64,000 bases of DNA from a bacterium HR10 (GCA_002923315.1 BEHM01000009.1:6571-70570); one strand, 5' to 3'; numbered from the stretch's first letter, positions 4,078 through 61,593 are shown. A program made the numbers and translations. The notes: generated by a model from the letters alone, not told the origin.

Positions 4078-4088
4078 CCCTGAGGACT

Positions 4089-4124
4089 GGAGGTCCGGTC
4101 CTCCGGCGAAGGAGGCCGGGCCTC
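4089..4124 (+). terminator. two short GC hairpins after the first TBDR gene
   Basis: GGAGG-tccggt-CCTCC (4089-4104) and GAGGC-cgg-GCCTC (4112-4124). No U-tract. Confidence 0.35.
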
Positions 4125-4140
4125 ATTGATCCCGCAGGGC

Positions 4141-4184
4141 CTCACCCTAATCCTGTTCAATGACCCTAAGAGCGTTCAAGACAA
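4141..4184 (+). promoter_or_regulatory. conserved upstream element, copy 2 (CACCCTAATCC ... CCCTAAGAGCGTTCAAGACAA), about 73 nt before the second TBDR start
   Basis: The 11-nt GTTCAAGACAA is identical to 140-150, with flanking similarity. Followed by CATAGT at 4202-4207. Confidence 0.45.
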
Positions 4185-4256
4185 TCAGCTCGCGGGCGCG
4201 GCATAGTGGTGAGGGGTCAGCGTATGGGAATGCCAAGCCAACAAGGAGGTCGCAAG

Positions 4257-7200: not shown

Positions 7201-7454
7201 CTCCGGGGACCTTGGGGAACCTCGGGCGGAACACGTTCCGCGGTCCGTGGTATGCGAGCACGGATATCTCGCTCTTCAAGAACTTCCGGGTGACGGAGAC
7301 GGCGACGGTCCAATTCCGCGCCGAGTTCTTCAACGCCTTCAATCGTGTGAATCTGGGGACGCCCGTGGCGGATTTGAATAGCCCGCTCTTTGGGCGCTCC
7401 ACCGGTGCGGGAGATCCTCGCGACATCCAGCTTGCTTTGAAAGTCCTGTTCTGA
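4257..7454 (+). CDS. TonB-dependent-receptor-like outer-membrane protein with CarboxypepD_reg domain (paralogue of 217..4077)
   Basis: The ORF in the track starts at 4206, but ATG 4257 is preceded by AAGGAGG and gives signal peptide 'MRTSLRCAFAIGVIVLLFGNVMPGSVRA'. Contains 'GTIVDPTGALVPGATVTATNKDTGETRTV...GFYRIVNLPPGRYDVTVEAKGF' and ends '...LALKVLF'. Confidence 0.85.
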   Translation: MRTSLRCAFAIGVIVLLFGNVMPGSVRAQQQLGTIQGTIVDPTGALVPGATVTATNKDTGETRTVLSNESGFYRIVNLPPGRYDVTVEAKGFRRAVRTDVVLFVGATLGVNFELEPGVLEEVIEVTAGLAQLQTEKADVSAVVERKKIVDLPLQLRNVFQLAALQPGITGLATGADFLTPEYGIGINANGQRGSGNNASLDGASINGNPWGGTVLMIPNVESVQEFQVITNNPSAEYGRNSGAIISIVTKSGTNEFHGSVFFFHRNDNLRALNIFARGALRRDATKEERQRVAPEFRRNDFGYSLGGPIRRDKTFFFTSYEGLRAATGQAFVTTVETKEFVDFVLRTRPNSIAAYLLKNFPPLAYPTTGLRDLGSPVPGATQIGPPDGIPDVGSVTVAPSGVRNGDQFNIRIDHLLFGGNGRLRGTYYRTKLDPVDVAVRPKFRQPFPHRNQFLNLAYTHIISPRTVNEFSFGYLRMHGRAPDLNPESPTITISGLGAGFGTAFWMPIRFAQNVFEYKDTLTMNRGNHGLKTGFEIRRVQDNHDFHHWERPNYTFNSILNFANDEPLTELRAVDPMTGLATGISAGYRNFEFAAFIQDDWKVRRNFTLNIGLRYENFGTPSKVGWKFQNIIYAPGRNVFERIANARMAYVDQLFKSDNNNFAPRFGFAWDVSGRGKLVIRGGTGISYNRLNNTIYTDEKMNPPRFAAASTDVRTPGAPPIVYTLGPKYPPNPALARGLDERGGIRGTRVNLRVVDPNITTPYAQNWFLGIQRELPGGLVAEINYIGSVGRHLHTGDGPGGENYNRFAGDLLDGRLDRLNPSFGSISLGETAASSSFHGGTIQVSRRYSQGFAFQAAFTFGKALETPGAAMEVTRRDLDRSVTGFHRGKKFSLNLIWEIPFWRERPVLRHIIGGWQLNAITQIQSGAPFSVFHGAPYPRGDFNADGQTGDRPNTPSWGNTKRDLSRSDFLRGIFTAADFPLPAPGTLGNLGRNTFRGPWYASTDISLFKNFRVTETATVQFRAEFFNAFNRVNLGTPVADLNSPLFGRSTGAGDPRDIQLALKVLF

Positions 7455-7464
7455 CGCGCGGAGA

Positions 7465-7503
7465 GGAGCGGAGGAGACTTCTTCCGGGAGGTCTCCCCGC
7501 TCC
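7465..7503 (+). terminator. strong hairpin between the second TBDR gene and abfA
   Basis: GGAGCGGAGGAGAC ... GTCTCCCCGCTCC: a 13-bp stem with one bulge and a 12-nt loop. It ends one base before the abfA ATG and contains its GGAGG. Confidence 0.5.
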
Positions 7504-9189: not shown

Positions 9190-9253
9190 GGACGATGTCA
9201 TGAGCAAGTGCGCATTCGCTTGCTCGGCCTCAGGACTTCGGAGGGGGACTTCG

Positions 9254-11671
9254 ATGAGATCCTTTTCCCTTTGGCTCATGGTCTTTCTGATGAGTTCGTC
9301 GGCTTGGCCTCGGTCTTCGAATTCGTCCGCACCGCCGAACGATTATCCCATCACGGCCGTCTCATTCACCGACGTTCAACTGGAACCGGGATTTTGGCAG
9401 ACGCGGATCGAGACGAATCGGATCGCGACCGTTCCGCATATCCTGCGGCAATGCGAAGTGACCGGACGGGTCGGCAATTTCCTGAAGGCAGCCGGAAAGA
9501 TGGCCGGGTACTTCGACGGTTGGTGGTTCAACGATTCGGATGTGTACAAGTCTATCGAAGCGGCTTCCTACAGCCTCATGCTCCACCCCGATCCGGAGTT
9601 AACGCGATACCTGGATGACCTTATCGCGAAGATCGCCGCGGCGCAGGAGCCCGATGGGTATCTCTTCACCCCACGTCGAACAATGGCGCCGAATTATCGG
9701 TTCGCCGCCTCTGTGGGGCCGGAGCGCTGGTCGAGACTGGGATCCAGTCATGAGCTGTACTGCTTGGGCCACCTCTTCGAAGCGGCCGTGGCGCATTATC
9801 AGGCGACGGGAAAGCGCTCGCTTCTGGAGGTCGCTCTGAAGAGCGCCGATCTTTTGGATCGCGTGTTTGGGCCCGACAAGAAGCGTGATGTCCCCGGACA
9901 TCAAGAGGTCGAAATCGGATTGATCAAGCTCTATCGGGTGACGCGAGACGAACGGTATCTCCGCCTGGCGAAATTCTTCCTCGATGAACGCGGGCGCCCT
10001 CACGGGCGTCGGCTTTATGGGACGTACAGTCAGGACCATAAGCCCGTCATCGAGCAGGAGGAAGCCGTCGGCCACGCCGTCCGCGCCCTCTATATGTACA
10101 TGGCGATGGCGGACGTCGTCGCTCTGTTGCGCGATCCGGCGTATGCGCGAGCCTTGGACCGGCTGTGGGCGGATGTCGTCGGTCGGAAGATGTATGTGAC
10201 GGGTGGGATCGGGGCCGCCGGAGGGCACGAGGGATTCGGCGCGCCATACGAGTTGCCGAATCTCGCGGCTTATTGCGAGACGTGCGCGGCCATCGCTTTC
10301 GCCCTGTGGAATCACCGTATGTTCCTCCTCACTGGGGAGGGCAAATACGTGGACGTGCTCGAACGTGTCCTCTATAATGGGCTCCTCTCCGGCGCCTCGC
10401 TCGATGGGCAGACGTTCTTCTATCCGAATCCCTTGGAGTCGGACGGTCGTCACGCGAGGAGTCCCTGGTTCGCCGTCGCGTGTTGTCCGCCGAATATCGC
10501 GCGATTCCTATTCCAGGTCCCGGGGCTGGCCTATGCTCATCGCGGAGATCAGCTCTATGTTAATCTCTTCCTGTCCAGCCGCGCGACCATTCGCATGGCG
10601 GATCAGACGGTCTTCATCCGCCAGGAGACGAGATATCCGTGGCACGGAGAGATCGCGCTCGCCCTCGAACCGGAGCGGCCGGGGCGCGCGTCCACTCTGC
10701 AGGTGCGCATCCCTGGCTGGGCGCGCAATGAGGCTGTGCCGAGCGATCTCTATCGCTTCGCCGAGACCGTCCGAGAGCGACCCACGATTCGGGTCAACGG
10801 GCGCTCGGTCGCCTACACCGTGGATCGCGGATATGCGACTCTACGCCGAAAGTGGCAAGAAGGAGATGTCGTGACGGTGACCCTCCCTATGCCGGTGCGG
10901 CGCGTGATCAGCCATCCCCAGGTCGAGGACAATATCGGAAAGGTCGCTTTGCAACGAGGACCCATCGTGTATTGCCTTGAATGGCCGGATGTTCCCGGAG
11001 GCCATGTCGTGAATTTGGTCCTGCCGGATACAGAGCCCCTGCGTGCGGAATTTCACGAGGATCTGTTCGGGGGGATCTCCGCCATCCGAGGAACAGCCAT
11101 TGGCCTTCGGTGCGTGGATGCCCAAGGGAGATTGCAGCGAGAACGTGTGCCCTTCCTGGCGATCCCGTACTATGCGTGGGCTCATCGCGGTCGCGGCGAG
11201 ATGGCCGTCTGGATCGCTCGGGTGGAGTCGGCGGCGCGCCCCTTGCCGTGTCCGACGATCGCCTTCCGAGCGAAGGCCAGCTCCTCCGGTGGCGATGCTC
11301 GGGCCTTGAACGATCAACGCGAGCCGCGACGCTCGGCGGATCGCTCGAATCGGTATCTCCACTGGTGGCCGCGCAAGGGGACGACCGAGTGGGTGCAGTA
11401 CGATTTCGAAGCCCCGACGCGCGTCTCTGCCGTTGAGGCCTACTGGTATGATGATACGGGTATCGGCGAATGCCGCGTCCCGAAATCGTGGCATCTGCTC
11501 TATCGGGAGAACGGGGAGTGGAAGCCGGTGAGGAATCCGAGCGGCTATGGGGTCGAGAGAGATCGCTATAACCGCACGACGTTCGATCCGGTGATCACCG
11601 ATGGGCTTCGCCTCGTCGTCCAGGCGCAGGAGAACTTCTGCGCTGGGATCCACGAATGGCGCGTGTATTGA
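9254..11671 (+). CDS. beta-L-arabinofuranosidase-like glycoside hydrolase family 127 (DUF1680/HypBA1-like) with extra C-terminal beta-sandwich-like domain
   Basis: N-terminal 'FTDVQLEPGFWQTRIETNR...' and Cys cluster 'YCETCAAIAF' / 'VACCPPNIARF', as recalled for HypBA1-type enzymes. ATG 9254 gives signal peptide 'MRSFSLWLMVFLMSSSA'; alternatives are 9200 and 9089. C-terminal 'WVQYDFEAPTRVSAVEAYWYDD...IHEWRVY' looks discoidin/F5-8-like. Confidence 0.8.
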   Translation: MRSFSLWLMVFLMSSSAWPRSSNSSAPPNDYPITAVSFTDVQLEPGFWQTRIETNRIATVPHILRQCEVTGRVGNFLKAAGKMAGYFDGWWFNDSDVYKSIEAASYSLMLHPDPELTRYLDDLIAKIAAAQEPDGYLFTPRRTMAPNYRFAASVGPERWSRLGSSHELYCLGHLFEAAVAHYQATGKRSLLEVALKSADLLDRVFGPDKKRDVPGHQEVEIGLIKLYRVTRDERYLRLAKFFLDERGRPHGRRLYGTYSQDHKPVIEQEEAVGHAVRALYMYMAMADVVALLRDPAYARALDRLWADVVGRKMYVTGGIGAAGGHEGFGAPYELPNLAAYCETCAAIAFALWNHRMFLLTGEGKYVDVLERVLYNGLLSGASLDGQTFFYPNPLESDGRHARSPWFAVACCPPNIARFLFQVPGLAYAHRGDQLYVNLFLSSRATIRMADQTVFIRQETRYPWHGEIALALEPERPGRASTLQVRIPGWARNEAVPSDLYRFAETVRERPTIRVNGRSVAYTVDRGYATLRRKWQEGDVVTVTLPMPVRRVISHPQVEDNIGKVALQRGPIVYCLEWPDVPGGHVVNLVLPDTEPLRAEFHEDLFGGISAIRGTAIGLRCVDAQGRLQRERVPFLAIPYYAWAHRGRGEMAVWIARVESAARPLPCPTIAFRAKASSSGGDARALNDQREPRRSADRSNRYLHWWPRKGTTEWVQYDFEAPTRVSAVEAYWYDDTGIGECRVPKSWHLLYRENGEWKPVRNPSGYGVERDRYNRTTFDPVITDGLRLVVQAQENFCAGIHEWRVY

Positions 11672-48212: not shown

Positions 48213-51200
48213 ATGATCAATCGCCTCATCGAATTTTGCGCGCATCATAAGTTCCTCGTTCTCCTCATAGTTGGCGTGGCCGTCTTGCTCGGTCTCTATG
48301 CGATGAAGAACATCACGCTCGATGCGATCCCGGATCTCTCGGATACGCAGGTGATCATTTACTCGCGGTGGGATCGCAGCCCGGACATCATCGAGGATCA
48401 GGTCACCTATCCGATCATCACGGCGTTGCTCGGGCTACCTCGGGTGAAGGACATTCGCGGCTTCTCGGACTTCGGCTACTCGTACGTCTACGTCATCTTC
48501 GAGGACGGGACGGACCTCTATTGGGCGCGATCGCGGACGCTGGAATACTTGAGCAGCATCCTCCCGAGGCTTCCGGAGGGCGTGCAGGTGGAGTTGGCCA
48601 AGGATGCGACGGCCGTCGGGTGGGTCTTCCAGTACGCTCTGGTGGATACGACGGGGAAGCACAGTCTGGCGCAGCTCCGTTCGATTCAGGACTGGTACCT
48701 GCGGTATGAGCTGCAGGCCGTCCCAGGAGTGGCCGAAGTCGCCCCGGTGGGGGGCTTCGTCCGCCAGTATCAGGTGAACCTCGATCCCAATGCATTGCTC
48801 GCCTACCGGATCCCCCTGGAGCGGGTCGTGGAAGCGATTCGGGAGGGGAACAACGATGTCGGCGGGCGATTGATCGAGTTCTCCGGACGGGAATACATGG
48901 TGCGGGGACGAGGGTATATCCGTTCCGTGCGCGATGTGGAGAACATCGTCGTGGGGGTGAATCCGGAGACGGGCGCGCCCATCCTGGTGAAGCACGTGGG
49001 AACGGTCGCTCTGGGGCCGGACATCCGGCGAGGCATCGCGGAGCTGGATGGCGAGGGGGAGACTGTCGGGGCCATCGTGATCATGCGCTATGGGGAGAAT
49101 GCGCTCAAGGTGATCGAGCGGGTGAAGGCGCGGCTGGCTGAGATCGAACGCACGCTGCCCGAGGGGGTGAAGATCGTCACGACCTACGATCGGTCGGACC
49201 TGATCCTCCGCTCCATCGAGACCTTGAAGCGGACGCTCATCGAAGAGCTGACGATCGTGAGCCTGGTCATTCTCATCTTCCTCTGGCACATCCCGAGCGC
49301 CCTCATTCCGATCCTCACGATCCCGACGGCGGTGATCCTCTCGTTCATCCCCATGTACGCGATGAATATCACGGCCAATATCATGTCGCTGGGGGGGATC
49401 GCCATCGCCATCGGCGCCATGGTGGATGCCGCCATCGTCGTCGTCGAGCAGACGCACAAGAAGCTCGAGCATTGGGAGGCGGAGGGGCGGCCGGGCGATT
49501 TTCGGGATGTCGTCATCGCCGCCGTCAAGGAGGTCGGCGGGCCGAGCTTCTTCGCCCTGTTGGTGATCGCGGTCTCCTTCATGCCCATCTTCGCTCTGGA
49601 GGCCCAGGAGGGGCGACTCTTCAAGCCGCTCGCCTTCACGAAGAACTTCTCCATGGCCATCGCGGCCGTCCTGGCCATCACACTCGATCCGGCCATTCGA
49701 TTGCTCTTCACGCGCGCGCGGGAGTTCGATTTCCGTCCCCGCTGGCTCTGCCGGCTGGCCAATGCCATCCTCGTGGGGAAGATCCACAGCGAGGAGAAGC
49801 ATCCTATCAGCCGCCCGTTGATGCGGGTGTATGAACCCGTCGTGCACTTCGTCCTGCGCCATCCGTATGCGACGATCGCCAGCGCCCTGCTCATCGTGGC
49901 GCTCACTGTCCCGATCTACTTCCGGCTCGGTTCGGAGTTCATGCCGCCTTTGGACGAGGGCGTTCTCCTCTACATGCCGACGACGCTGCCGGGCATCTCG
50001 GTGACCGAGGCCGCGCGGCTGCTTCAGGTTCAGGACAAGATCCTGAAGTCGTTCCCCGAGGTGGAGCGCGTCTTCGGCAAAGTGGGGAGAGCGGAGACGG
50101 CTACGGATCCGGCGCCCTTCTCGATGGTGGAGACCGTCGTGGTGCTCAAGCCTCCCGATCAATGGCCGAAGGTGAAGCGTTGGTATTCCGATTGGGCGCC
50201 GCCGTGGATGCAGAGGGTTCTTCGGCGCATTTGGCCCGATCGTCGGACGACCGAGGAGTTGATCTACGGTCCGGGGGGATTGAACGAAGCTCTGCAGCTG
50301 CCGGGCGTCGTCAATGCCTGGACGATGCCAATCAAGGCGCGCATTGACATGCTCACGACCGGCGTGCGGACGCCCGTGGGCATCAAGATCCTCGGCGATG
50401 ATTTGAACAAGATCCAGGAGATCGGCGAGCACATCGAGCGCGTGCTCCGCGATGTCCCCGGGACGACGAGCGTCTTCGCCGAGCGCACGGCCGGCGGGTA
50501 CTTCCTGGACTTCGCCCTCAAGCGCGAGGAGCTGGCCCGCTACGGCCTCACGATCGGTCAGGCGCAGATGGTCATCATGTCGGCCATCGGCGGGGAGAAC
50601 ATCACCATGACGGTCGAGGGGCGGGAGCGCTATCCGGTCAACGTTCGCTACCTGCGCGACTACCGGAGCACGCTCGATCGGTTGAGCCGCGTCCTCGTGC
50701 CTACGCCCACAGGCGCCCAGATCCCGATCGCCCAGATCGCTGAGATCCGGCTCGCTTACGGTCCCGGGATGATCCGGGATGAGAATGGCCGATTGAGCGG
50801 CTATGTCTACGTGGATGTCTCCGGGCGCGATATCGGGGGGTATGTGGAGGAAGCCAAGCGCCTCGTCCGGGAGAAGGTCCCACTGCCGCCCGGATACACG
50901 CTGGTCTGGAGTGGCCAGTATGAGTACATGCAGCGCGTGAAAGAGCGGTTGGCGATCGTGGTCCCGATCACCCTCTTCATCATCTTTCTGTTGCTGTACG
51001 GCAATACCGGTTCAGTGGCCAAGACGCTCATCATCTTTCTGGCTGTGCCCTTCTCGGCGGTCGGCGCGATCTGGCTGCTCTATCTGCTCGACTACAATCT
51101 GAGCATCGCCGTGTGGGTGGGATTGATCGCCTTATTGGGCGTGGATGCTGAGACGGGCGTGTTCATGCTGCTCTATCTCGATCTGGCCTATCAGGAGATG

Positions 51201-51491
51201 CGTTCAAAGGGCATGATGAAGACGCGGGAGCATCTGCATGAGGCCATCGTGCACGGGGCCGTCAAACGATTGCGTCCGAAATTCATGACGGTGGCTACGA
51301 TGTTCATGGGATTGGTTCCCATCATGTGGTCCACCGGTGCTGGGGCGGACGTGATGAAGCGGATCGCGGCGCCGATGATCGGCGGCATCTTCACTTCGTT
51401 CCTCATGGAGCTCGTGGTCTATCCGGCCATCTACGATCTGTGGCGCTGGCATTTTCACGTGAAGAAGGAGGCGCGGGCAGCCGGAGCGTGA
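48213..51491 (+). CDS. CusA/CzcA-family heavy-metal RND efflux pump
   Basis: 1092 aa. 'MINRLIEFCAHHKFLVLLIVGV', 'DAIPDLSDTQVIIYS', 12-TM RND architecture. Confidence 0.92.
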   Translation: MINRLIEFCAHHKFLVLLIVGVAVLLGLYAMKNITLDAIPDLSDTQVIIYSRWDRSPDIIEDQVTYPIITALLGLPRVKDIRGFSDFGYSYVYVIFEDGTDLYWARSRTLEYLSSILPRLPEGVQVELAKDATAVGWVFQYALVDTTGKHSLAQLRSIQDWYLRYELQAVPGVAEVAPVGGFVRQYQVNLDPNALLAYRIPLERVVEAIREGNNDVGGRLIEFSGREYMVRGRGYIRSVRDVENIVVGVNPETGAPILVKHVGTVALGPDIRRGIAELDGEGETVGAIVIMRYGENALKVIERVKARLAEIERTLPEGVKIVTTYDRSDLILRSIETLKRTLIEELTIVSLVILIFLWHIPSALIPILTIPTAVILSFIPMYAMNITANIMSLGGIAIAIGAMVDAAIVVVEQTHKKLEHWEAEGRPGDFRDVVIAAVKEVGGPSFFALLVIAVSFMPIFALEAQEGRLFKPLAFTKNFSMAIAAVLAITLDPAIRLLFTRAREFDFRPRWLCRLANAILVGKIHSEEKHPISRPLMRVYEPVVHFVLRHPYATIASALLIVALTVPIYFRLGSEFMPPLDEGVLLYMPTTLPGISVTEAARLLQVQDKILKSFPEVERVFGKVGRAETATDPAPFSMVETVVVLKPPDQWPKVKRWYSDWAPPWMQRVLRRIWPDRRTTEELIYGPGGLNEALQLPGVVNAWTMPIKARIDMLTTGVRTPVGIKILGDDLNKIQEIGEHIERVLRDVPGTTSVFAERTAGGYFLDFALKREELARYGLTIGQAQMVIMSAIGGENITMTVEGRERYPVNVRYLRDYRSTLDRLSRVLVPTPTGAQIPIAQIAEIRLAYGPGMIRDENGRLSGYVYVDVSGRDIGGYVEEAKRLVREKVPLPPGYTLVWSGQYEYMQRVKERLAIVVPITLFIIFLLLYGNTGSVAKTLIIFLAVPFSAVGAIWLLYLLDYNLSIAVWVGLIALLGVDAETGVFMLLYLDLAYQEMRSKGMMKTREHLHEAIVHGAVKRLRPKFMTVATMFMGLVPIMWSTGAGADVMKRIAAPMIGGIFTSFLMELVVYPAIYDLWRWHFHVKKEARAAGA

Positions 51492-52792
51492 TGAGCGGTA
51501 TGGGGGTCCGACGCGTGGAGGAGGGACTTCGCTTCGGATCGGGCGCGGGGAGCCAAGCGGGGAGATCCGCGTGGTGCGCGCTGCTCCCCTTGGGGATCGG
51601 TGTCGTCCTGGGGCCGACGGGCTTGGGGTGGCTTCACCCATTTGTTCTGCCGGGGGGATGGGAGGTCGGCGATAGAGGTTGGCCGCGCGCGGCAATCGCG
51701 GGGATGGCGGAATTGGGGTTGGTGCAGATCATTTTCCTCGCCGGAGCGCGCGACGGACGAGAGTCCTGGAGATGGAGGGCGCTCTTGCGTCTGGCCGCGA
51801 GTCATTTCGCCTTCGGGGCGGGAAGCCTTCTGGTCGTGGCGCTTGCGCTCGGTGTCGAAGGCGCGGCGGCCTGCGCCATCGCCGGCGTGCTCTCGACGGC
51901 GAGCTTTGTGCTCTCGCCCTTTGGCTCGGTGTGGGCGAGAAGGGAGGAGCCGAGGGCGGCCGATCCGGCATCCGTGCTGGCCGTTCTCGGAGCGCTTCTG
52001 GTTCTCATCGCCGTGGGATGGGAGTGGACGTCGAGCTCCGGCGCCCATCTGGCTGCAATCGGCGTCGGACTCTACATCGTGAAGACGGGACTGGTGGTCG
52101 GAATCGCCGATCGGATCTTGGCGTGGTATGTGATGCGTGTGGAGAGGTGGGCGAGAGTCGAGCGGAGAGTCGGCGCGGGTTCCGGGATCGAACTTCGCCA
52201 CCAGGCGTTTGTGGGCTTCCTCATTCTGTTTGCGATCTTCTACGGATGGGCGGCCTGGCGGGTCGGGCCTCTCGCGGCGATGGGCGTGGCCTATCTGGGA
52301 GGGAGGCGATTTGGCCGTTCGCTCTTTCGGAACAAAAGCGCGATGGGTGCTTTCCCCTGGCTGGCTCGGCTTCCGGTCGGGGCGCTCTTCCTGGCGTTGG
52401 GGGCGACCCTCGATGCGCGAGCGCTCGGCCAGAGGATCGGGGAATTCCTCGCGCTTCTTGGAGGCGGAGCGATCGGGAAGGCTCTCGGTCTGCTCGCCAC
52501 CGCGCGGTGGATGCGATCGAGCGACTTGACGGACGTCCCTTGCGATTCGGAAGGTCGCGCGAGGGCGAGAAGTCGCCGCGCGCTCGACATGCCTTGGGGC
52601 GGAGAGATCGGCTGGGTCCTGGCGGGATTCGCCTTCTCTCGAGGCGTCATCTCACCTGAGGTGCTGTCTGTGGTTCTTGGGATCATCGGCTCGACGACGC
52701 TCGGTGCGCTCCTCTTCAGAGGAGGGGAAGCCCGGGTGGGTGACGGCGCCACGCCGAATTCTTTACGAGGAGGGAGACGGTGGGGAGAGTGA
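51491..52792 (+). CDS. divergent cation:proton-antiporter-like (CPA2/Kef-like) polytopic membrane protein
   Basis: ATG 51491 overlaps the cusA stop (TGATG). 'LLPLGIGVVLGPTGLGWL' and 'MAELGLVQIIFLAGAR' resemble the first CPA TM helices, and there are multiple further hydrophobic helices. The track's 51326 start lies inside cusA. Confidence 0.5.
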   Translation: MSGMGVRRVEEGLRFGSGAGSQAGRSAWCALLPLGIGVVLGPTGLGWLHPFVLPGGWEVGDRGWPRAAIAGMAELGLVQIIFLAGARDGRESWRWRALLRLAASHFAFGAGSLLVVALALGVEGAAACAIAGVLSTASFVLSPFGSVWARREEPRAADPASVLAVLGALLVLIAVGWEWTSSSGAHLAAIGVGLYIVKTGLVVGIADRILAWYVMRVERWARVERRVGAGSGIELRHQAFVGFLILFAIFYGWAAWRVGPLAAMGVAYLGGRRFGRSLFRNKSAMGAFPWLARLPVGALFLALGATLDARALGQRIGEFLALLGGGAIGKALGLLATARWMRSSDLTDVPCDSEGRARARSRRALDMPWGGEIGWVLAGFAFSRGVISPEVLSVVLGIIGSTTLGALLFRGGEARVGDGATPNSLRGGRRWGE

Positions 52793-53490
52793 TGGGGGTC
52801 TTCTTCATCTCGGTCTTCGCAACGGGGGTCCGAAGCGGCCTCGCTCAGGAGTTTCGCATCCCCGTTCGACACGATCACGCTCTGAGGTCTTGCCGGGGTG
52901 AGCTGGTGATCACTGGCGAGGAGATCGTGTATCAAACGGCGCACCGGCACCATGCGCGCCGATGGCGATTCTCGGAGATTCAGATGCTCACGGTCGCCTC
53001 GCGCACGGAGCTGATCATCCTCACGTACGAATCCGGCCGATGGACATTCGGGCGGGATCGCGCCTTCCGATTCCGGGTTGCGGAAGGAGAGCTTTCGCCG
53101 GAGGTGGGGGCGTTTCTCCTCTCGAGGATTGAGCGGCCCATGGCGATGACCCTCGCCGCCCCTTGGCGGGAGCCCCTGCAGGAGCTGGCCGTACGCCACC
53201 GCCATCGTTTCGGGGGATGCCAGGGGGTGCTTCGCCTTCATCCGGAAGGCGTGGCCTACGTCTCATCGGATCAGCCGCGGGATTCCCGCTTTTGGCGGTG
53301 GTCGGATATTCAGGGGATCGGTCGGCTCGGCCCTCATCAGTTCGAGGTCACAACGTATGAGCCGGAGTTCGGCGGGCCCACGCGCACCTATGTGTTCGAT
53401 CTGAAAACGGGCCTGTCGAACGAGGCGTACGATTTCATCTGGGAAAGGGTCTATCGTACGACGCCTCATGCGACCGGGGGGCTTCGCTGA
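52792..53490 (+). CDS. hypothetical periplasmic protein made of two tandem homologous domains, each with a VRHxH...C.G motif
   Basis: ATG 52792 overlaps the upstream stop (TGATG). Signal-like 'MGVFFISVFATGVRSGLA'. The internal repeat aligns 'VRHDHALRSCRGELV...WRFSEIQ...LTYE' with 'VRHRHRFGGCQGVLR...WRWSDIQ...TTYE'. Confidence 0.6.
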   Translation: MGVFFISVFATGVRSGLAQEFRIPVRHDHALRSCRGELVITGEEIVYQTAHRHHARRWRFSEIQMLTVASRTELIILTYESGRWTFGRDRAFRFRVAEGELSPEVGAFLLSRIERPMAMTLAAPWREPLQELAVRHRHRFGGCQGVLRLHPEGVAYVSSDQPRDSRFWRWSDIQGIGRLGPHQFEVTTYEPEFGGPTRTYVFDLKTGLSNEAYDFIWERVYRTTPHATGGLR

Positions 53491-53570
53491 AGGGGTTCCC
53501 GTATGGGGCGTTCGGGCGAGCGCCTTCGCCTGAGAGCGAAGGTGAAATCCCGTTGATCTGGAGGAGGGAG

Positions 53571-53951
53571 ATGAAGACCATCTGGTCGCTTCTCAGCATC
53601 GTGTTCATCGTCGGCGTGAGCGTGTGGGCTCAGCACGCGCATCCGTCGGGGACCACTCGCGAGACGACGATCGTGGGAGAAGTGATTGATCCGGTGTGTT
53701 ATCTCAGCCACGGGTCTACGGGAAAAGCGCATCGCAAGTGCGCCGAGTATTGCGTGCGGCAGGGGATTCCCCTCGGCATTTTGGAGGAGAAGACGGGGCG
53801 GGTGTACCTCTCGCTTCCCGTGGATCATTCCAATCCGAACGCGAAGCTGAAGGATTTCATCGCCGAGAAGGTGAGGGTGACGGGGACGGTCTACAGTAAG
53901 GGCGGGCTCACGGGCATCCACGTGAAGCGCGTCGAGCGAGTGGGGACATAG
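53571..53951 (+). CDS. hypothetical small periplasmic Cys/His-containing protein
   Basis: ATG 53571 follows GGAGGAGGGAG. Signal '[20 protein letters not shown]'. 'QHAHPSG', '[22 protein letters not shown]'. Confidence 0.6.
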
Positions 53952-54103
53952 GGGTCTCAATTTGCCCGGAGCTCAGCGTAGACGCGCCTGACTGTGGATG
54001 GGGTGTCCCCGCGAGGGCATCGCTCGGGAGGGGTTTCGTTTTCATCGAGCGCGGGGGACAATATAGTCTTCGCGCGAAGCCAGAGCGAGTGGGAGGAGGA
54101 CAT

Positions 54104-56560
54104 ATGCACGACATTAAGGGCGCGCAGTCAGGAGCCGGAGCCTCGGTGACGGATCCGGTATGTGGGATGGTGGTGAGCCCGGAGCGGGCGGCGGGCTCGC
54201 TCGAATACGAGGGGCGAACGTACTTCTTCTGCTGCGAACACTGCTTGGAGAAGTTCCGCGCGGAGCCAGGACGATACGTGGGTCGCGCCGAGCAACGACT
54301 TACGCTTCGGCGCCTCCGCCGGGAGCCGGAGCTGTCCCCCGCAGCAGAAGGTGAGTATGCATGTCCTATGCACGCGGGGGTGCGGCAGGCGCAGCCGGGA
54401 ACGTGTCCGGAATGTGGGATGGCTTTGGAGCCATTCTTACCCTCGGTGTGGGAGTACACGTGTCCGATGCACCCGGAAGTGGTGCGACGGGAACCCGGAG
54501 CCTGTCCGATCTGTGGGATGGCCTTAGAGCCGAAGCTCGCGCTCGGCCAGGAGCCTCCCCAACCGGAGCTTGTGGACATGAGCCGCCGATTTTGGATCAG
54601 CGCGGTGCTGACGGCACCGATCCTGCTCTTGGCCATGTCCGATCTGATCGGGGGAATCCGCGGCCTGCCGGCCCACTGGCTCAACGGGATTCAACTCGTC
54701 CTCGCCACGCCGGTCGTCCTCTGGGGGGGATGGCCGTTCTTCCATCGCGCGTGGATGTCGGTGAAGCACCGACGACCGAATATGTTCACGTTGATCGCCA
54801 TGGGCACGGGAGCCGCTTATCTCTACAGCGTGATTGCGGCGCTCTTTCCCGGCCTTTTCCCATCCTCATTTCGCGGCCCGCAGGGTGAGGTCGCCGTCTA
54901 TTTCGAAGCGGCGGCCGTCATCACGACGCTTGTCCTGCTGGGGCAGGTGTTAGAATTGCGAGGTCGCCGCCGGACGGGTGACGCGATTCGAGCTTTGCTC
55001 GGTTTGGCGCCACGGACAGCTCGGGTGATTCGCGATGATGGGAGAGAGAAAGACGTTCCCCTGGAGCGCGTGCGTGTAGGCGATCGCCTGCGGGTTCGTC
55101 CGGGAGAGCGCATCCCTGTGGATGGCGTTGTGCTCGAAGGCACGAGCTTCGTGGATGAATCCATGGTGACGGGCGAACCGATGCCGGTGGAGAAGGGGCC
55201 CGGGAGTTGGGTCATCGGAGGGACGGTCAACGGGACGGGCAGCTTCCTGATGCGCGCCGAGCGCGTCGGTCATGAGATGCTCTTGCAGCAGATCGTGCGC
55301 CTGGTGAGCGAGGCGCAGCGCAGTCGGGCGCCGATCCAGCAGTTGGCCGATCGGGTGTCGGCGTACTTCGTCCCCGCGGTCATTTTCGTGGCGGCGATCA
55401 CGTTCCTGGTCTGGAGCGTCGTGGGTCCGGAGCCGCGTCTGGCGCATGCGCTGGTGAATGCCGTCGCCGTCTTGATCATCGCGTGTCCGTGCGCTTTGGG
55501 GCTCGCCACGCCGATGGCGATCATGGTGGGGACGGGCCGGGGCGCTCTGGCCGGCGTGCTCGTGCGCAACGCCGAGGCCCTGGAGCTGTTGGAGAAGGTG
55601 GACACGCTCGTCCTCGATAAGACGGGTACGCTTACGGAAGGGCGACCGCACGTGACCTCCATCGTCGCGTTAGCGGAGTTGACCGAGGCCGAGGTGCTTC
55701 GCTTCGCCGCGAGCCTGGAGCGGGGGAGTGAGCATCCCATAGCGCATGCCGTGCTTGAGGCCGCCAAACGAAAGGGGATCTCGCTGGCCGAAGTGCGGGA
55801 CTTTCGATCGCTCCCAGGGCAGGGAGCGCAAGGGATGGTTGATGGACATACGGTGGCCATCGGAAACGAGCACCTCGTCGAAGAGCTCGGTCTGGAGACC
55901 GAGGCCGATATGGTGCGTCCTCAAGTCGAAGCCATGCGACGCCTTGGGCAAACGGTGCTGTTCGTCATCGTGGATAGGAAGCTCGTCGGGCTGCTGGGGG
56001 TCGCCGATCCCATCAAGGAATCGGCGCGCGAGGCTATTGCGGCGCTGCGTCGAGAGAGACTGCGCATTGTGATGGTCACGGGCGATCATCGCCAGACGGC
56101 CGAAGCAGTGGCTCGTGAATTAGGGATTGATGAGGTGATCGCCGAGGTGATGCCCGAGCAGAAGGCCGATGTGGTGCGGCGTTTGAAGGCCGAAGGTCGC
56201 TGCGTGGCGATGGCCGGGGATGGCGTGAATGATGCGCCCGCACTCGCCGAAGCCCATGTGGGCATCGCCATGGGGACGGGGACGGACGTCGCCATCGAGA
56301 GTGCGGCCATTGTGCTCGTGAAAGGGGACGTGCGCGGGATCGTGCGCGCTCGGCGGCTCAGTCGGGCGACGATGCGGAACATCCGGCAGAATCTCTTCTT
56401 CGCCTTTGTGTATAACCTGCTCGGCGTGCCCATTGCGGCCGGCATCTTCTATCCGATCTTCGGACTCTTGCTGAGTCCGATGATCGCCGCGGTGGCGATG
56501 ACATTCAGCTCGGTCTCGGTCGTCACGAACGCTTTGCGTCTGCACCGGCTCGCCTTGTGA
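54104..56560 (+). CDS. copA: heavy-metal (Cu/Ag-type) P1B-type ATPase with non-classical N-terminal metal-binding modules
   Basis: ATG 54104 follows GGGAGGAGGA. TRASH/YHS-like '[11 protein letters not shown]...[12 protein letters not shown]'. Two Cys4 modules, '[25 protein letters not shown]' and '[25 protein letters not shown]'. '[11 protein letters not shown]', '[11 protein letters not shown]', '[10 protein letters not shown]'. Confidence 0.92.
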
Positions 56561-56668: not shown

Positions 56669-56968
56669 TCATTTCTTCGCCGGCAGGACGGAGTCCTTCA
56701 GGGTCTTGGCGATCCGAAACCGCAAGACCGTCTTGGCCGGGATCTTAATGGGCTCTCCGGTCCGCGGATTTCGGCCCATGCGAGCCTTCCGCTTGGAGAG
56801 GACGAATTTGCCGAGTCCCGGGAGCGTGAAGACACCCGCTTTCTTCACCTCTTTGGCCACGAGCGCTGACAATTCATCCAGGAAACTGCGAGCGGTCGCT
56901 CGGTTGACGCCGAGTTTCTCCGCCAGTTGTCCCACAAGTTGAGCCTTCGTCAGTCCCTTTTTCGCCAT
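56669..56968 (-). CDS. hup: HU/IHF-family nucleoid-associated DNA-binding protein
   Basis: 'LTKAQLVGQLAEKLG...', 'FTLPGLGKFVLSKRKARMGRNPRTGEPIKIPA'. Confidence 0.9.
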   Translation of the reverse strand: MAKKGLTKAQLVGQLAEKLGVNRATARSFLDELSALVAKEVKKAGVFTLPGLGKFVLSKRKARMGRNPRTGEPIKIPAKTVLRFRIAKTLKDSVLPAKK

Positions 56969-57026
56969 ATCCTCCTCCTCTCGCTTGAGATGCTCACCGC
57001 ACGAGCGCCCCTATCTTAGCACGAAA

Positions 57027-57650
57027 TCACGAGCGCGTCACCGACAGGGCTTCTTCCTCAGGGACTTCGCGCCGGTGCAGGACCTTATCAATCAGGCCGT
57101 AGGCGACGGCTTGATCGGCCGTGAGGATGAAATCGCGCTCCACGTCTCGCTCGATCTGTTCGAGCGTGCGCCCAGTATGCTTGGCCAGCAGCGAGCTGAT
57201 CAGGCGTCGCAGGCGCATCAACTCTTCAGCGTGGATGCGAATGTCGGTGGCCTGACCGGAGACGCCGTAGATATACGGCTGGTAGATCACGATTCGAGAG
57301 CTGGGGAGCGCATATCGCTTCCCCGGGGCTCCGGCCGCCAGCAGCAGGGCGGCGATCGCTTCCGCCTCCCCCGTGCAGATCGTCGCCACGTCGGGGCGGA
57401 TGAATTGCATGGTATCGTAGATGGCGAGGCCTGCCGTGAGCGACCCCCCCGGGCTGTTGATGTAGAGGTTGATGTCCCGATCCGGGTCCTCGGCCTCGAG
57501 ATAGAGCAGTTGCGCGATGATCAGATTGGCCACCTGATCGTCAATGGGAGTGCCCAGGAAGACGATGCGCTCCTTCAAGAGGCGAGAATAGATGTCGTAG
57601 GCGCGTTCGCCGCGACTGGTCGTCTCAACCACGATCGGCACAAAGTGCAT
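57027..57650 (-). CDS. ClpP-family paralogue lacking the catalytic Ser and His (ClpR-like, predicted proteolytically inactive)
   Basis: Collinear with ClpP ('[29 protein letters not shown]', 'LYINSPGGS', '[12 protein letters not shown]'). However '[11 protein letters not shown]' replaces GQAASMGAFLL (Ser to Ala98, codon 57357-57359) and 'RIVIYQP' replaces RVMIHQP (His to Tyr123, codon 57282-57284). The Asp in 'VERDF' is retained. Confidence 0.85.
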
Positions 57651-57693
57651 AACCTCACCTCCCGCTCTGCAATTTTAGCATGAATCGGCGCTC

Positions 57694-57708
57694 TGGCAAT
57701 CGCTGCCA
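57694..57708. promoter_or_regulatory. perfect palindrome TGGCA-N5-TGCCA in the divergent clpP-like / sigma-54-activator intergenic region
   Basis: 'TGGCAatcgcTGCCA'. On the minus strand TTGCCA serves as a -35 (16-nt spacer) for a TAAAAT -10 at 57672-57677, upstream of the clpP-like gene. Confidence 0.4.
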
Positions 57709-57782
57709 CGTGTTCTCGCGGCCTGTCGGAGCCTTGCTTTTCGAGGAGAAATCGGCTATCACTCGCAAAAAGTGAAGCGGTC

Positions 57783-59321
57783 ATGAGGAGCGAGGTGAAT
57801 CAAGACGTTCAGAAGCTGGCGACGCTGCTCAACATCAGCCAGACGCTGGGGACGACGCTCAACCTGCGACAGGCTTTGCTGCGGGTGCTGGAGATCCTGG
57901 AGGAGAATCACGGCGTGGTCTCCGGTGTGATCGCCCTGTTGGAGGAGAGCGGCGAGGAGGTGGTCATCGAGGTCTCGGTGGGGCTGACGCGCGAGGCGCA
58001 ACAGCGCGGTCGCTACCGGGTGGGCGAGGGGATCATCGGGCGCGTCGTCGAAAGTGGCAAGCCCATCGTCGTCCCCAAGGCGAGCCAAGAGCCGCTCTTC
58101 TTGGACCGCACGGGCGTGCTCCGAGCCTCTCGCGAGGAGCTGACCTTCATCTGCGTGCCCGTCTCCGTGGATCAGCAGACGATCGGCGCCATGGGCGTGG
58201 TGCTCCCCTATCGCCCGGATCGCGACTACGATCAAGCCACGAAGTTCTTCAGCGTCGTCGGCTCGATGGTGGCGCAGGCGGTGAAGGTGAATCAGCTCAT
58301 CGAGGCCGAGAAGCGCCGCCTGATGGACGAGAACCTCGCCCTGCGCCGAGAGTTGCGGGAGCGCTACGACTTCAGCAATATCATCGGCACGAGCCGCCCG
58401 ATGCAGGAAGTCTACGCGCAGGTCGCGCAGGTCGCTCGCACGAATACAACCGTCCTCATTCGGGGGGAGTCGGGAACGGGGAAGGAGTTGATCGCGCGCG
58501 CGATCCATTACAATTCGCTGCGGGCCGATCAACCGTTCATCAAGGTCAGTTGCGCCGCTCTGCCCGAGAGCCTCATCGAGGCCGAGCTGTTCGGATATGA
58601 GAAGGGGGCGTTCACCGGGGCCTACGCGCGGAAGAAGGGGCGGTTCGAGCTGGCCGATCGGGGGACGCTCTTCCTGGATGAGGTCGGCGATCTCCCCCTC
58701 TCGGTCCAGGTCAAGCTCTTGCGCGTGCTGCAGGAACGGGAGTTCGAGCGGCTCGGCGGGACCGAGACGATCAAAGTGGATGTGCGATTGATCGCCGCCA
58801 CCAATCGCGACCTCGAGCAGGCCATGCGCGAGGGGACATTCCGCGAGGACCTCTATTATCGCCTGAACGTGTTCACGATCTTCCTCCCCCCACTTCGAGA
58901 GCGGAAGTCGGACATCCCGCTTCTGGCCGATCACTTCCTGGAGAAGTACGCCCGCTTGCATGGCAAGGACATCCGGCGCATTTCGACGCCCGCCATTGAT
59001 ATGCTCATGAGCTACCATTGGCCGGGGAATGTTCGCGAATTGGAGAACTGCATCGAACGCGCCGTGCTCGTCTGCGAGGGGAGCGTGATCCACAGCCATC
59101 ACCTGCCCCCCACGCTGCAGACGGCGGAGGCGTCGGGAACCGTCCCCCGCCTCTCCTTGAGCGAGGCCGTGGCCGCCTATGAGAAGGACTTGATCCTCGA
59201 TGCCCTGAAGACGGCCCGAGGGAATATCTCGCGCGCCGCGCGCCTGTTGAATACCACGAAGCGCATCCTCGGCTATAAGGTCAAGAAGTACGGGATCAAT
59301 CCTCGTCGGTTCAAAGAGTAG
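57783..59321 (+). CDS. sigma-54-dependent transcriptional activator (GAF sensor + AAA+ + Fis-type HTH; NifA-like architecture)
   Basis: N-terminal GAF-like region, '[19 protein letters not shown]', 'GAFTGA' loop ('[10 protein letters not shown]'), 'LFLDEVGDL', C-terminal '[26 protein letters not shown]'. Confidence 0.9.
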
Positions 59322-59394
59322 TCCGGGGCGGGTGCATCGCGCATCAGGGCGGACGCCTGTCGTCTCGCGCGAGCGCTGTCCCCGGGAGCACGCG

Positions 59395-59423
59395 TTGACA
59401 GTGGACGCGAGCTCTGATATATC
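59395..59423 (+). promoter_or_regulatory. sigma-70-like promoter for the S9 peptidase gene
   Basis: TTGACA, 17 nt, TATATC. Confidence 0.4.
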
Positions 59424-59490
59424 CCTTGGCTCCCTGCACATAGGGGGCATCATTGCCCTGGGGGGGAGATTCGAGGCAAGGAGGAGGACT

Positions 59491-61593
59491 ATGATCGGAG
59501 GGCATCGTCTGCGTCGTGGCGTCATCGGGATTCTCCTTTCGGCTGCCCTTGTGAGCGGTCTTCCGGTGATCGCGCGGGATCAGGAGGATCGGCTCACGCC
59601 GATGGATCTTTTCGAGGTGGAGTACGCCAGCGATCCCCAGATCTCGCCCGACGGGCGGTATATCGTCTACGTGCGGCGGGCCAGCGACGTCATGACGGAT
59701 CAGCGGTATTCCAACCTTTGGATCGTCTCCTTCGATGGGAAAGAGCATCGGCCGTTGACGACCGGCATTCATCGGGATACTTCGCCGCGCTGGTCACCCG
59801 ATGGCACGCGGATCGCCTACATCTCGGATCGAGAGGGCTCGCCGCAGATCTACGTGCGGTGGATGGATACGGGACAGGTGGCGCGGATCACCAACGTGCC
59901 GTTCCCGCCGGAGGGGATCGCGTGGTCTCCCGATGGGCGATACCTCTCGTTCGCGATGTTCGTGCCGGAGCCCCCGCGACAGATCGGGAGTTTCCCGTCG
60001 CCGCCTTCCGGAGCCAAGTGGGCGGATCCCGCGATGGTGATTGACCGCCTTGTTTATCGGTTCAACGGCGCGGGGTATTTGAAACCGGGATACACACATC
60101 TGTTCATCGTTCCGGCGGAAGGGGGGACGCCGCGGCAAATCTCCAGCGGGAAATTCCATCACGGTGGCGTCGGCTTCCGCGCCAGCGAGGCCGTGTGGAC
60201 CCCTGACGGGAGAGCGTTGCTCATCTCGGCCAATCGCCGGCCAGATTTTGAGCAGGAGCCGCTCGATACGGAGATCTACGAGTTCTCCATCGCCGATGGC
60301 TCGGTTCGAGCGCTGACCAACCGCCGGGGACCGGACAACGCTCCGGCGATCTCACCCGATGGGCGGTTCATCGCGTACGTCGGCTTCGATGACGCCTATC
60401 AAGGGTATCAGGTGACGCGCCTCTACGTGATGAATCGAGATGGGAGTGGTTCGCGCGTGCTCTCGACTGCGCTCGATCGCGATGTCGTGCGACCCTGTTG
60501 GACCCCGGATGGTCGTGGCCTTCTCTTCCTCTACGATGATCAGGGTACGACGAAACTCGGTCTCTATACATTGGACGGGACTTTCCGGACGCTCGCGACC
60601 CATATCGGGAGCGGAGAGCTCGCCTACAGCATGGGCGGGGCTTTCAGCGTAGCGAAGAATGGTGCTTTCGCCGTGACCTACACGCGTCCGGATGTGCCGG
60701 GTGATATCGCCGTGGGAACGCTCGCCGATCCGACGCTTCGGGTGATCACCGCCTTGAACGCGGACCTCTTCGCGCGGAAGAAGCTGGGGCGCGTCGAGGA
60801 GATCTGGTACACGTCGTCGCTCGACGGGCGAAAGATCCAGGGATGGATCATCACGCCACCGGACTTCGACCCATCGAAGAAGTACCCTCTGATCCTGGAG
60901 ATTCACGGCGGGCCGTTCGCCAACTACGGCGACCGATTCGACGTGGAGAAGCAATTGTGGGCGGCGCGGGGGTATGTCGTCCTCTATACGAACCCGCGCG
61001 GGAGTACGAGCTACGGGGAGGAATTCGGCAACCTGATTCATCACGCCTATCCCGGCGATGATTTCTACGATCTCATGTCCGGTGTGGATGCCGTCATCGC
61101 GCGCGGGTATGTGGATCCGGAGAACCTCTTCGTCACCGGTGGCAGCGGTGGCGGCGTCTTGACCTGTTGGGTGATCGGGCGAACGAATCGGTTTCGGGCT
61201 GCGGCGGCCGCCTATCCCGTGATCAATTGGTATAGTTTCGTGTTGACGGCCGACATCGCCGCCTTCGCCATCAAATATTGGTTCCCCGGATTCCCGTGGG
61301 ATCACGTCCAGCATTACGAGAGGCGATCGCTCTTGTCGGTCGTCAAGAACGTGCGCACGCCGACGCTCATCATCACGGGCGAGGAGGATTATCGCACGCC
61401 CATGTCCGAATCCGAACAGTATTTCACGGCGCTGAAGCTCTTGGGCGTCGAGACGGTGCTCGTGCGCGTTCCCGGAGAACCACATGGGATCATGCGGCGG
61501 CCAAGCCATCACATGGCCAAGATCTTGTACATCGTCAATTGGTTTGACGAGCACCGGAGACGTTCGGGAGCGCGCGCGTCGGATCGGCCCTGA
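59491..61593 (+). CDS. S9-family serine peptidase (acylaminoacyl-peptidase/dipeptidyl-peptidase-like) with N-terminal beta-propeller
   Basis: ATG 59491 follows AAGGAGGAGGA, with a signal peptide. TolB-like repeats ('SPDGRYIVYV', 'SPDGTRIAYIS', 'SPDGRYLSF', 'SPDGRFIAYV'). Nucleophile elbow 'VTGGSGGGVL'. Confidence 0.88.
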   Translation: MIGGHRLRRGVIGILLSAALVSGLPVIARDQEDRLTPMDLFEVEYASDPQISPDGRYIVYVRRASDVMTDQRYSNLWIVSFDGKEHRPLTTGIHRDTSPRWSPDGTRIAYISDREGSPQIYVRWMDTGQVARITNVPFPPEGIAWSPDGRYLSFAMFVPEPPRQIGSFPSPPSGAKWADPAMVIDRLVYRFNGAGYLKPGYTHLFIVPAEGGTPRQISSGKFHHGGVGFRASEAVWTPDGRALLISANRRPDFEQEPLDTEIYEFSIADGSVRALTNRRGPDNAPAISPDGRFIAYVGFDDAYQGYQVTRLYVMNRDGSGSRVLSTALDRDVVRPCWTPDGRGLLFLYDDQGTTKLGLYTLDGTFRTLATHIGSGELAYSMGGAFSVAKNGAFAVTYTRPDVPGDIAVGTLADPTLRVITALNADLFARKKLGRVEEIWYTSSLDGRKIQGWIITPPDFDPSKKYPLILEIHGGPFANYGDRFDVEKQLWAARGYVVLYTNPRGSTSYGEEFGNLIHHAYPGDDFYDLMSGVDAVIARGYVDPENLFVTGGSGGGVLTCWVIGRTNRFRAAAAAYPVINWYSFVLTADIAAFAIKYWFPGFPWDHVQHYERRSLLSVVKNVRTPTLIITGEEDYRTPMSESEQYFTALKLLGVETVLVRVPGEPHGIMRRPSHHMAKILYIVNWFDEHRRRSGARASDRP

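Follow-up and report, generated by a model that had tools for sequence, protein, structure and literature searches.

A conserved ClpP paralogue with a rewritten active site, encoded next to hup in thermophilic Blastocatellia: a candidate ClpR-like subunit of independent origin

The reviews consulted list non-catalytic ClpP subunits for no groups other than cyanobacteria, plastids and apicoplasts (PMC7966870), and why a protease core carries dead subunits is still unclear (PMC4673316). The question is raised anew by a ClpP-like gene in a 64,000-nucleotide stretch of DNA from bacterium HR10 (GCA_002923315.1, BEHM01000009.1:6571-70570; this whole stretch is called the window). A preliminary description, made from the sequence of the window, took the gene product for an orphan ClpP paralogue in which the catalytic Ser and His are replaced, and likened it to ClpR. 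Is it a genuine protein, is it a ClpR, and what could it do? The analysis suggests an independently evolved, minimally diverged ClpR-like pseudoprotease with a rebuilt pocket, a linkage to hup and a lineage-specific ClpX2. The gene and the parts of its product that matter most are:

57027..57650, minus strand: coding sequence of the predicted non-catalytic ClpP paralogue (207 amino acids plus stop; ATG start, TGA stop)
57351..57371, minus strand: former nucleophile elbow, translated as GEAEAIA (for GQAASM[GA]), with Glu95, Glu97 and Ala98
57264..57290, minus strand: former general-base and substrate-binding strand, VIYQPYIYG, with Tyr123 (for His), Tyr126 and Tyr128 (for Gly)
57132..57140, minus strand: Glu171-Arg172-Asp173, retained; Asp173 completes the triad, and Glu171 and Arg172 are the ring-ring 'oligomerisation sensor'

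At the level of the fold, the protein belongs to ClpP (peptidase family S14) by three measures. Pfam CLP_protease (PF00574) gives a full-length match over residues 13-193 (4.7e-78). The closest PDB sequence match obtained with phmmer is the ClpP 8r04 (8.6e-84, collinear throughout), and E. coli 1tyf is matched at 4e-77, so that the collinearity with ClpP claimed in the preliminary description was borne out. Finally, the AlphaFold2 (AF2) model superposes on 8r04 in Foldseek with template modelling scores of 0.81/0.93 and a root mean square deviation of 1.4 Å. This monomer model is only moderately confident (mean predicted local distance difference test score 68.5, low at residues 1-23, the N-terminal loop, and at 128-134, the handle strand) and is thus uninformative on pocket geometry. 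Identity to active ClpPs is 65-75%. Among the NCBIfam models, the protein passes the ClpP subfamily model NF001368, scores under the cut-off of the clpP equivalog TIGR00493 (297.5 versus 308.6) and also under that of NF009204/PRK12552 (194.8 versus 263), which we take to be the cyanobacterial ClpR-type model.

The catalytic site is where the protein departs from this family. In place of the Ser-His-Asp triad of catalytic ClpP (S97, H122 and D171 in E. coli) it has Ala98, Tyr123 and Asp173. The codons were checked and the reported ones are correct: GCG at 57357-57359 for Ala98 and TAC at 57282-57284 for Tyr123; that of Asp173, within VERDFI, lies at 57132-57134. An alignment of the 177 nearest homologues outside the clade defined below likewise upholds the replacement of Ser by Ala and of His by Tyr with the Asp kept: the Ser is conserved in 177/177 of these sequences, the His in 176/177 and the Asp in 177/177, which places the deviation far outside family variation. 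The automatic annotation "ATP-dependent Clp protease proteolytic subunit" is very probably wrong as to activity. The single homologue without the His (P0146, from an ENA contig of ~1 kb) is an otherwise canonical Acidobacteriota-like ClpP in which the catalytic His is changed to Pro (SRILIPQPLIGG); this sole other triad deviation among the 177 may be a variant or an error.

The altered triad is part of a larger set of changes. Invariant in the clade and almost absent from the 177 homologues are Gln10 to Thr, Gln95 to Glu, Ala97 to Glu, Leu121 to Val/Ile, His123 to Tyr, Tyr126, Gly128 to Tyr and Gln161 to Arg, a list which is joined by Ser98 to Ala/Ser; most of these changes are located in the nucleophile elbow or in the base/substrate-binding strand. 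At the positions of Glu95 and Glu97 the homologues have Gln (98%) and Ala (93%), while Tyr123, Tyr126 and Tyr128 occur in none of them. The replacement of 'LGG' by 'YIYG' reported for the substrate pocket stands as far as Tyr126 and Tyr128 are concerned, which are indeed peculiar, but the active ClpP1 of the lineage (HQPHAGG) has a loop after QP that is longer by one residue as well. Conservation of the two catalytic substitutions is also uneven. All five lineages have a Tyr codon (TAC or TAT) at position 123, whereas Ala98 is not fixed: codon 98 reads GCG, GCG, GCC or GCA (Ala), and TCG (Ser) in L087/P0004. Ser and His in orthologues would have spoken for a normal enzyme; one orthologue does have Ser, but Tyr123 is still there and the triad is not restored. 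Since the Ser-bearing P0004 groups with the Ala-bearing P0002 (87% bootstrap), residue 98 toggles between two small residues and is not selected as a nucleophile.

The remainder of the protein is canonical. The N-terminal gating loop, VP(I/M)V(V/I)..., is identical to that of ClpP1 at 16/20 positions, with Gln10 to Thr as the only clade-specific change. Taking the E. coli ATPase-docking pocket to consist of L23, L48, F49, A52, Y62, F82, I90, F112, L114 and L189, the corresponding residues are hydrophobic, conserved and mostly identical to those of ClpP1. The oxyanion-hole Gly69 is kept, and Glu171, Arg172 and Asp173 are invariant in the clade, in the lineage's ClpP1 and in E. coli ClpP. In addition, the propeptide is absent: the protein begins at the mature N-terminus, whereas the ClpP1 of the lineage has an extension of ~10 residues. 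Absence of a propeptide is expected of a subunit unable to self-process.

Error and gene decay do not account for these changes, and the gene is under strong purifying selection. The window protein is exactly P0121 and falls in a 90% cluster of 25 members from NCBI, JGI, ENA and Logan assemblies, the representative of which is indexed in 93 blocks. The clade comprises four such clusters, the others being those of P0002 and P0003 (85% identity) and of P0004 (81%). Pairwise Nei-Gojobori ratios of non-synonymous to synonymous substitution (dN/dS) are 0.017-0.064, with dS from 0.9 to saturation, in comparison to 0.018 for the canonical clpP of the same lineage and 0.035-0.10 for the neighbouring hup; ~85% nucleotide identity accompanies 97-99% protein identity. 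The source names ("Blastocatellia bacterium" metagenome-assembled genomes, "bacterium HR08") identify the clade as uncultured thermophilic Blastocatellia, and the sequencing runs with the locus are mostly hot-spring metagenomes. A profile of the clade-specific C-terminal two-thirds, searched against 5.8 billion proteins, retrieved P0001, P0002 and P0004 at ~250 bits and nothing else above 171 bits; the clade is hence very narrow. In a scan of genome contigs, the matches listed contained no clade members and were all canonical ClpPs, at no more than 72% identity. P0005 (260 amino acids) and P0007 (244 amino acids) were excluded on account of internal duplications of ClpP segments; these are probably assembly or gene-calling chimeras.

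The signals and the gene that accompany the coding sequence are:

57651..57663, minus strand: short 5' leader with Shine-Dalgarno; putative transcript 5' end at 57663
57672..57699, minus strand: putative sigma-70-type promoter of the ClpP-like gene (TTGCCA, 16 nt, TG-C-TAAAAT; extended -10)
56669..56968, minus strand: hup, 99-amino acid DNA-bending protein of the HU/IHF family (Pfam Bac_DNA_binding 3.5e-27; best PDB match IHF, 7e-19)
57013..57021, minus strand: TGCTAAGAT, extended -10-like element in the 58-bp spacer, kept in 4/5 lineages

The promoter matches the consensus at 10/12 positions and has the TG motif, with 0.4 sites expected in the region. It coincides with a block, GATTGCCnG...ATTCrTGCTAAAAT, that is invariant in five lineages, while the remaining intergenic DNA is unalignable; the Shine-Dalgarno sequence GGAGGTGA is found 5-6 nt 5' of the ATG. 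The gene is expressed. An RNA contig of 949 nt, 97% identical to the window, runs from 56711 (inside hup) to 57653, just 5' of the start codon, which is consistent with co-transcription of the two genes. Across the RNA contigs, the ClpP-like gene is covered at a depth of 18-42 and hup at up to 186, compared to 4-8 for the neighbouring genes. Because these are assembled contigs devoid of strand information, the RNA data show presence and not exact transcript structure. Another metatranscriptome contig (X25, record 5) stops at 57663, 9 nt 3' of the -10 element, and continues with Illumina adapter; this is only suggestive of 57663 as the transcript 5' end. The element TGCTAAGAT is probably an additional promoter for hup, in keeping with the greater RNA depth over that gene.

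In its genomic context, the gene was described as lying upstream of hup and divergent from a sigma-54 activator with a GAF domain. Both neighbours are as described in the window. However, only the first is conserved: hup lies 55-62 bp 3' of the ClpP-like gene in all lineages examined (58 bp in the window), whereas all other flanking genes vary between lineages. The activator is found solely in the P0001, P0121 and P0122 lineages; being missing in two of four lineages (P0004 and P0002), it is an incidental neighbour. Two explanations of the locus were considered. That the divergent NifA-like activator controls the gene through sigma-54 was rejected: the activator is absent from P0004 and P0002, the spacing of the upstream GG/GC-like element is 10 and not 12, and the promoter that is conserved is of the sigma-70 type with an extended -10. 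A remnant of a clpP-clpX-lon-hupB cluster, the E. coli gene order, is not supported, given that the canonical locus of the lineage is without hup and that the active sister ClpP2 is not beside hup.

Is the protein then a ClpR? In neighbour-joining trees the clade is monophyletic in 200/200 bootstraps and its sister (198/200) is a group of orphan ClpP2 proteins, P0006, P0055 and P0085, from metagenome bins of related, Blastocatellia-like bacteria, with an intact triad (GQAASGA, IHQPFIYGGG); the two together join the ClpP1 of the same lineage with 83-85% support. The nearest relatives are all Acidobacteriota ClpPs, at 72-75% identity. Chloracidobacterium was rejected as the host, since its ClpP locus (L086) is only 72% identical to the ClpP1 of this lineage and the NCBI source names are those given above. 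Distances to ClpP1 are 0.30-0.41 for the dead clade and 0.35-0.39 for the active sister, which are similar, so that a marked acceleration of rate is not seen. Kinship with cyanobacterial and plastid ClpR, to which the preliminary description likened the protein, must therefore be given up, in as far as a tree without authentic ClpR allows: the protein falls within the Acidobacteriota ClpPs, with an active orphan ClpP2 as sister. By this nesting and by its score with NF009204/PRK12552, it does not belong to the ClpR clade by descent, and the resemblance would be convergent. A ClpR-like dead protease subunit thus seems to have arisen independently in an Acidobacteria lineage, to judge from the sequences, and not to be a member of the ClpR family.

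In the functional sense, 'ClpR-like' fares better. ClpR subunits lack functional catalytic residues and are nevertheless conserved, and the same is observed here, with Tyr123 invariant, residue 98 Ala or Ser and the low dN/dS given above; selection and the RNA contigs support a conserved, expressed pseudoprotease, its inactivity being predicted. The active sister clade resembles the dead one in having no propeptide, in F/Y-I-Y-G after QP, in features of the C-terminal part such as ELxRLR and ERDFILTA, and in being encoded away from clpX and co-occurring by sample with a ClpX2. It differs in that Ser, His and Asp are kept, the loop is two residues longer and hup is not downstream. The recent birth of a ClpR-like pseudoprotease can thus be seen, as it would seem, almost in the act, with an active sister, a Ser-retaining His-less intermediate and fully dead forms. 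In L107, the active sister ClpP2 adjoins a PALP-family gene, which is upstream. In L106 (a contig of 1,014 bp, P0008), a mid-protein PALP/threonine-dehydratase-like stretch lies downstream of this ClpP2 in another frame; the differing placement points to a rearrangement or a chimeric contig, and the P0006/P0008 contig is too short for context.

Where, then, are the partners that a dead subunit would need? The window itself contains none: tblastn over the 64 kb detected no other ClpP, ClpX, ClpX2, trigger factor or second HU, and a Pfam scan of its largest open reading frames detected no Clp ATPase. The orphan status assigned in the preliminary description holds on this scale but not for the genome, since a search for canonical clpP and clpX in a sibling genome (GCA_033579395.1; its protein is 97% identical and its local synteny is that of the window) revealed a tig-clpP-clpX locus and a second ClpX. 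Contig JAVQVS010000002.1 (3,082,426 bp) of this genome bears the dead paralogue P0122 at 403-416 kb and, ~900 kb apart, ClpX2, tig, clpP1 (P0016) and clpX1 at 1,303-1,316 kb; in three further assemblies, paired accession series point to both loci in one genome as well. In common with ClpP1P2-type systems there are therefore two clpP genes, one of them in tig-clpP-clpX. The nucleophilic Ser is not kept in both, as it is in those systems: Ala98 is found in 3/4 lineages and the His is lost in all.

The canonical locus of the lineage reads ClpX2-tig-clpP-clpX-GTPase-rho. ClpX2 is located directly 5' of tig-clpP-clpX only in this lineage and was not found in the tig-clpP-clpX neighbourhood of >30 other Acidobacteriota loci. 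It is a protein of 398 amino acids (L103:3134-4330 and L092:5150-6346, in relatives of the window's genome and outside the window) with CxxC...CxxC, Walker A/B, GYVG pore loop, RKH loop and GIGF docking loop; Pfam misses its zinc-binding domain though the CxxC...CxxC is present. ClpX2 forms a narrow clade of its own (75-98% identity), after which scores fall from 597 to 467 bits. The ClpX2 P0218 is present in exactly the three JGI samples with the dead paralogue P0004 (3/3), and the ClpX2 P0225 in the sample holding the active sister P0055. Mostly on the basis of such sample co-occurrence, ClpX2 seems to belong to a ClpP2/ClpX2 pair older than the loss of catalysis.

We lean towards the view, as slightly more probable than not in our estimate, that the protein is a non-catalytic subunit or ring which pairs with ClpP1 and docks a ClpX-type unfoldase. 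It would be a ClpP2-type paralogue stripped of peptidase chemistry, the general base having been lost and in most lineages the nucleophile too, in which the structural and docking features of a Clp core subunit would all be retained. It would co-assemble with the catalytic ClpP1 from the tig-clpP-clpX locus elsewhere in the genome, either by forming a separate heptameric ring on top of one made of ClpP1, the arrangement of bacterial ClpP1P2 cores, or by mixing with ClpP1 inside the rings, as in cyanobacterial ClpP3/ClpR. In both arrangements the chamber would be left with fewer active sites. The canonical gating loops and hydrophobic pockets would dock a ClpX-type unfoldase, for which ClpX1 and the lineage-specific ClpX2 are candidates, and the translocated polypeptide would be cut at the ClpP1 sites only. 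A structural and docking role is suggested by the canonical gating loops, ATPase-docking pocket and ring-ring sensor; pairing with ClpP1 accounts best for an active site that is rewritten while the docking surfaces are kept, for selection like that on ClpP1, for the missing propeptide and for the presence of ClpP1 and two ClpX proteins in the genome. The data show the fold, the lost catalytic residues, strong purifying selection, expression and coexistence with ClpP1, ClpX and ClpX2; assembly with ClpP1, the choice of ATPase and the role in the cell are inferred.

Several points weigh against pairing with ClpP1. Hetero-oligomerization is proposed purely by analogy and from conserved surfaces. 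Neither clpP1 nor a Clp ATPase gene adjoins the gene, and an operon thus gives no pointer to a partner; coexistence with ClpP1 was established in the sibling genome of 97% protein identity and same synteny. Co-occurrence with ClpX2 is at the level of samples except in two lineages with ClpX2 beside tig-clpP1 on one contig, one of which has ClpX2-tig-clpP1 on the same contig as the dead ClpP. Moreover, ClpX2 is older than the loss of catalysis and hence not peculiar to the dead ClpP. Two invariant Glu and three invariant Tyr exceed the needs of a simple loss, which hints at a gained function, and the conserved linkage to hup is not explained by the model.

The protein might instead assemble with itself alone, into a 7- or 14-subunit homo-oligomer devoid of proteolysis which binds ClpX or ClpX2 without degradation, acting as a competitive damper of ClpXP1 or as a platform that makes of the unfoldase a pure remodelling or holding machine, a client of which could be the basic HU/IHF protein encoded directly downstream. 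We consider this unlikely, though worth serious attention. The intact docking pocket and gating loops and the lack of linkage to clpP1 would fit it, as would the acidification of the former active-site region by two invariant new Glu per subunit; so would the operon-like pairing with hup, which arose with the dead clade and is not seen in the active sister, but this adjacency may merely reflect co-expression with a highly expressed housekeeping gene, and hup appears to have its own promoter too. There is also a comparable protein in M. xanthus, the orphan ClpP2 of which is inactive and poorly oligomeric when alone (PMC11423568). On the other hand, the conserved ring-ring sensor and the 72% identity to ClpP1 fit hetero-assembly at least equally. 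An ATP-burning dead-end sink would be costly, and we know of no precedent for one.

Another explanation is neofunctionalization instead of mere inactivation: Glu95, Glu97, Tyr123, Tyr126, Tyr128 and Asp173 might together form a gained site, either for catalysis other than by Ser-His or for the binding of a metal or ligand in the chamber. Five new residues are invariant across lineages which differ at up to 19% of the protein and are synonymously saturated, simple loss does not require their fixation, and Asp173 is retained. We nonetheless regard such a site as highly improbable. The Ala/Ser toggle at position 98 leaves no conserved nucleophile, an unused groove may simply be filled and stabilized by the large Tyr side chains of the substrate-binding strand, the AF2 monomer is of low confidence at residues 128-134, and to our knowledge family S14 offers no precedent. 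The broader proposal of a non-degradative chamber of ClpX2 and 'ClpP2*' that holds basic clients such as the co-encoded HU/IHF, or else provides a new ligand or metal site, is likewise improbable in our view. Lastly, the gene might be a non-functional relic, or a normal clpP misread in sequencing or assembly, since substitutions at canonical catalytic positions are what a dying gene or an error could produce. This is effectively refuted by the intact open reading frame, by an identical motif in dozens of contigs (NCBI, JGI, ENA and Logan), by dN/dS of 0.017-0.064, by the conserved promoter and Shine-Dalgarno sequence, by the RNA contigs and by a Tyr codon that is TAC or TAT everywhere.

How would a subunit paired with ClpP1 compare with known systems? 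ClpR occurs with ClpP3 in the mixed rings of Synechococcus (PMC4673316, PMC7966870). The present protein resembles it in having a ClpP fold and no working triad and in being kept under selection beside a catalytic ClpP; the propeptide is absent, as in PfClpR (PMC7966870), and the presumed role, by analogy, would be that of a structural and docking subunit which dilutes active sites. It differs in its independent origin, its 72-75% identity to active ClpP, the retained Asp and the Ser of one lineage, and in having no ClpR-type insertion, no neighbouring clpP and a non-cyanobacterial thermophile as host. The two-ClpP systems used for comparison were Mycobacterium ClpP1P2, Listeria ClpP1/2, Pseudomonas ClpP1/2, Chlamydia, Leptospira and the Myxococcus orphan ClpP2. 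Likenesses to these are a second clpP away from tig-clpP-clpX and a lineage-specific duplication. Those systems keep the nucleophilic Ser and have at most the third triad residue altered; Listeria ClpP1, for example, has Ser-His-Asn. The ClpP1 of P. plecoglossicida has Ser-His-Pro (PMC12900304). Bacterial ClpP1P2 cores are heterotetradecamers (PMC12900304, PMC11423568), in which a second ClpP that is weak or inactive alone works (PMC12900304), a likeness that is predicted here. M. xanthus, with two ClpPs and three ClpXs, shares the extra ClpX copies, and its orphan ClpP2 has an intact triad and is inactive in vitro (PMC11423568). By contrast, since no member has the His and most lack the Ser too, the dead subunit would not be switchable by partner binding.

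The clade was not found described in the literature on ClpP pseudoproteases, ClpR-like proteins and Acidobacteria, the coverage of which was incomplete; MEROPS-style lists may include similar proteins. If the interpretation is true, a second origin in a non-photosynthetic lineage would make active-site dilution of the Clp core a recurrent evolutionary solution. The case is unusually tractable in that it offers both an active sister paralogue and an intermediate with the Ser still in place. Reversion and swap experiments should be straightforward, since a handful of substitutions separates the states and identity to the active partner is ~72%. A possible dedicated ClpX2 partner and the tie to a nucleoid protein are also brought to attention.

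A few observations concern the surroundings of the gene. No association with anti-phage defence was apparent, as judged by the lack of PADLOC hits, and an Rfam scan of the window gave no hits. Antisense open reading frames at 56985-57683 (plus strand, 232 amino acids) and 57759-59525 (minus strand, 588 amino acids) overlap the ClpP-like gene and the activator, respectively; they have no family support, are typical of DNA of 63% GC and are almost certainly not genes. The divergent sigma-54 activator (57783-59321, plus strand) has GAF, AAA+ and HTH_8 domains and scores 545 against a cut-off of 528.85 with the NCBIfam NifA equivalog; perhaps it is nitrogen-related without being a nif regulator. 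Downstream of it, the P0001 lineage has a 79-amino acid open reading frame and glnA, while the next gene in the window is that of an S9 peptidase. The latter (59332-61593, plus strand) is of the prolyl-oligopeptidase family, with a PD40/Tricorn-like beta-propeller; two such peptidases are found in tandem in L001:1-3077 (P0001). On the other side of hup, a copper/metal resistance block (48213-56560) encodes, at 48213-51491, an RND pump (ACR_tran) and, at 54089-56560, a P-type ATPase that carries YHS and two HMBD domains; this block is beside hup in the P0001 and P0122 lineages, not in P0004 or P0002. Farther away, at 217-11671, two outer-membrane receptors of the CarboxypepD_reg/OMP_b-brl_4 type (217-4077 and 4206-7454) are followed by arabinofuranosidase genes (GH51-like C-terminal domain, 7504-9189; GH127, 9089-11671), in what looks like a cluster of the polysaccharide-utilization type.

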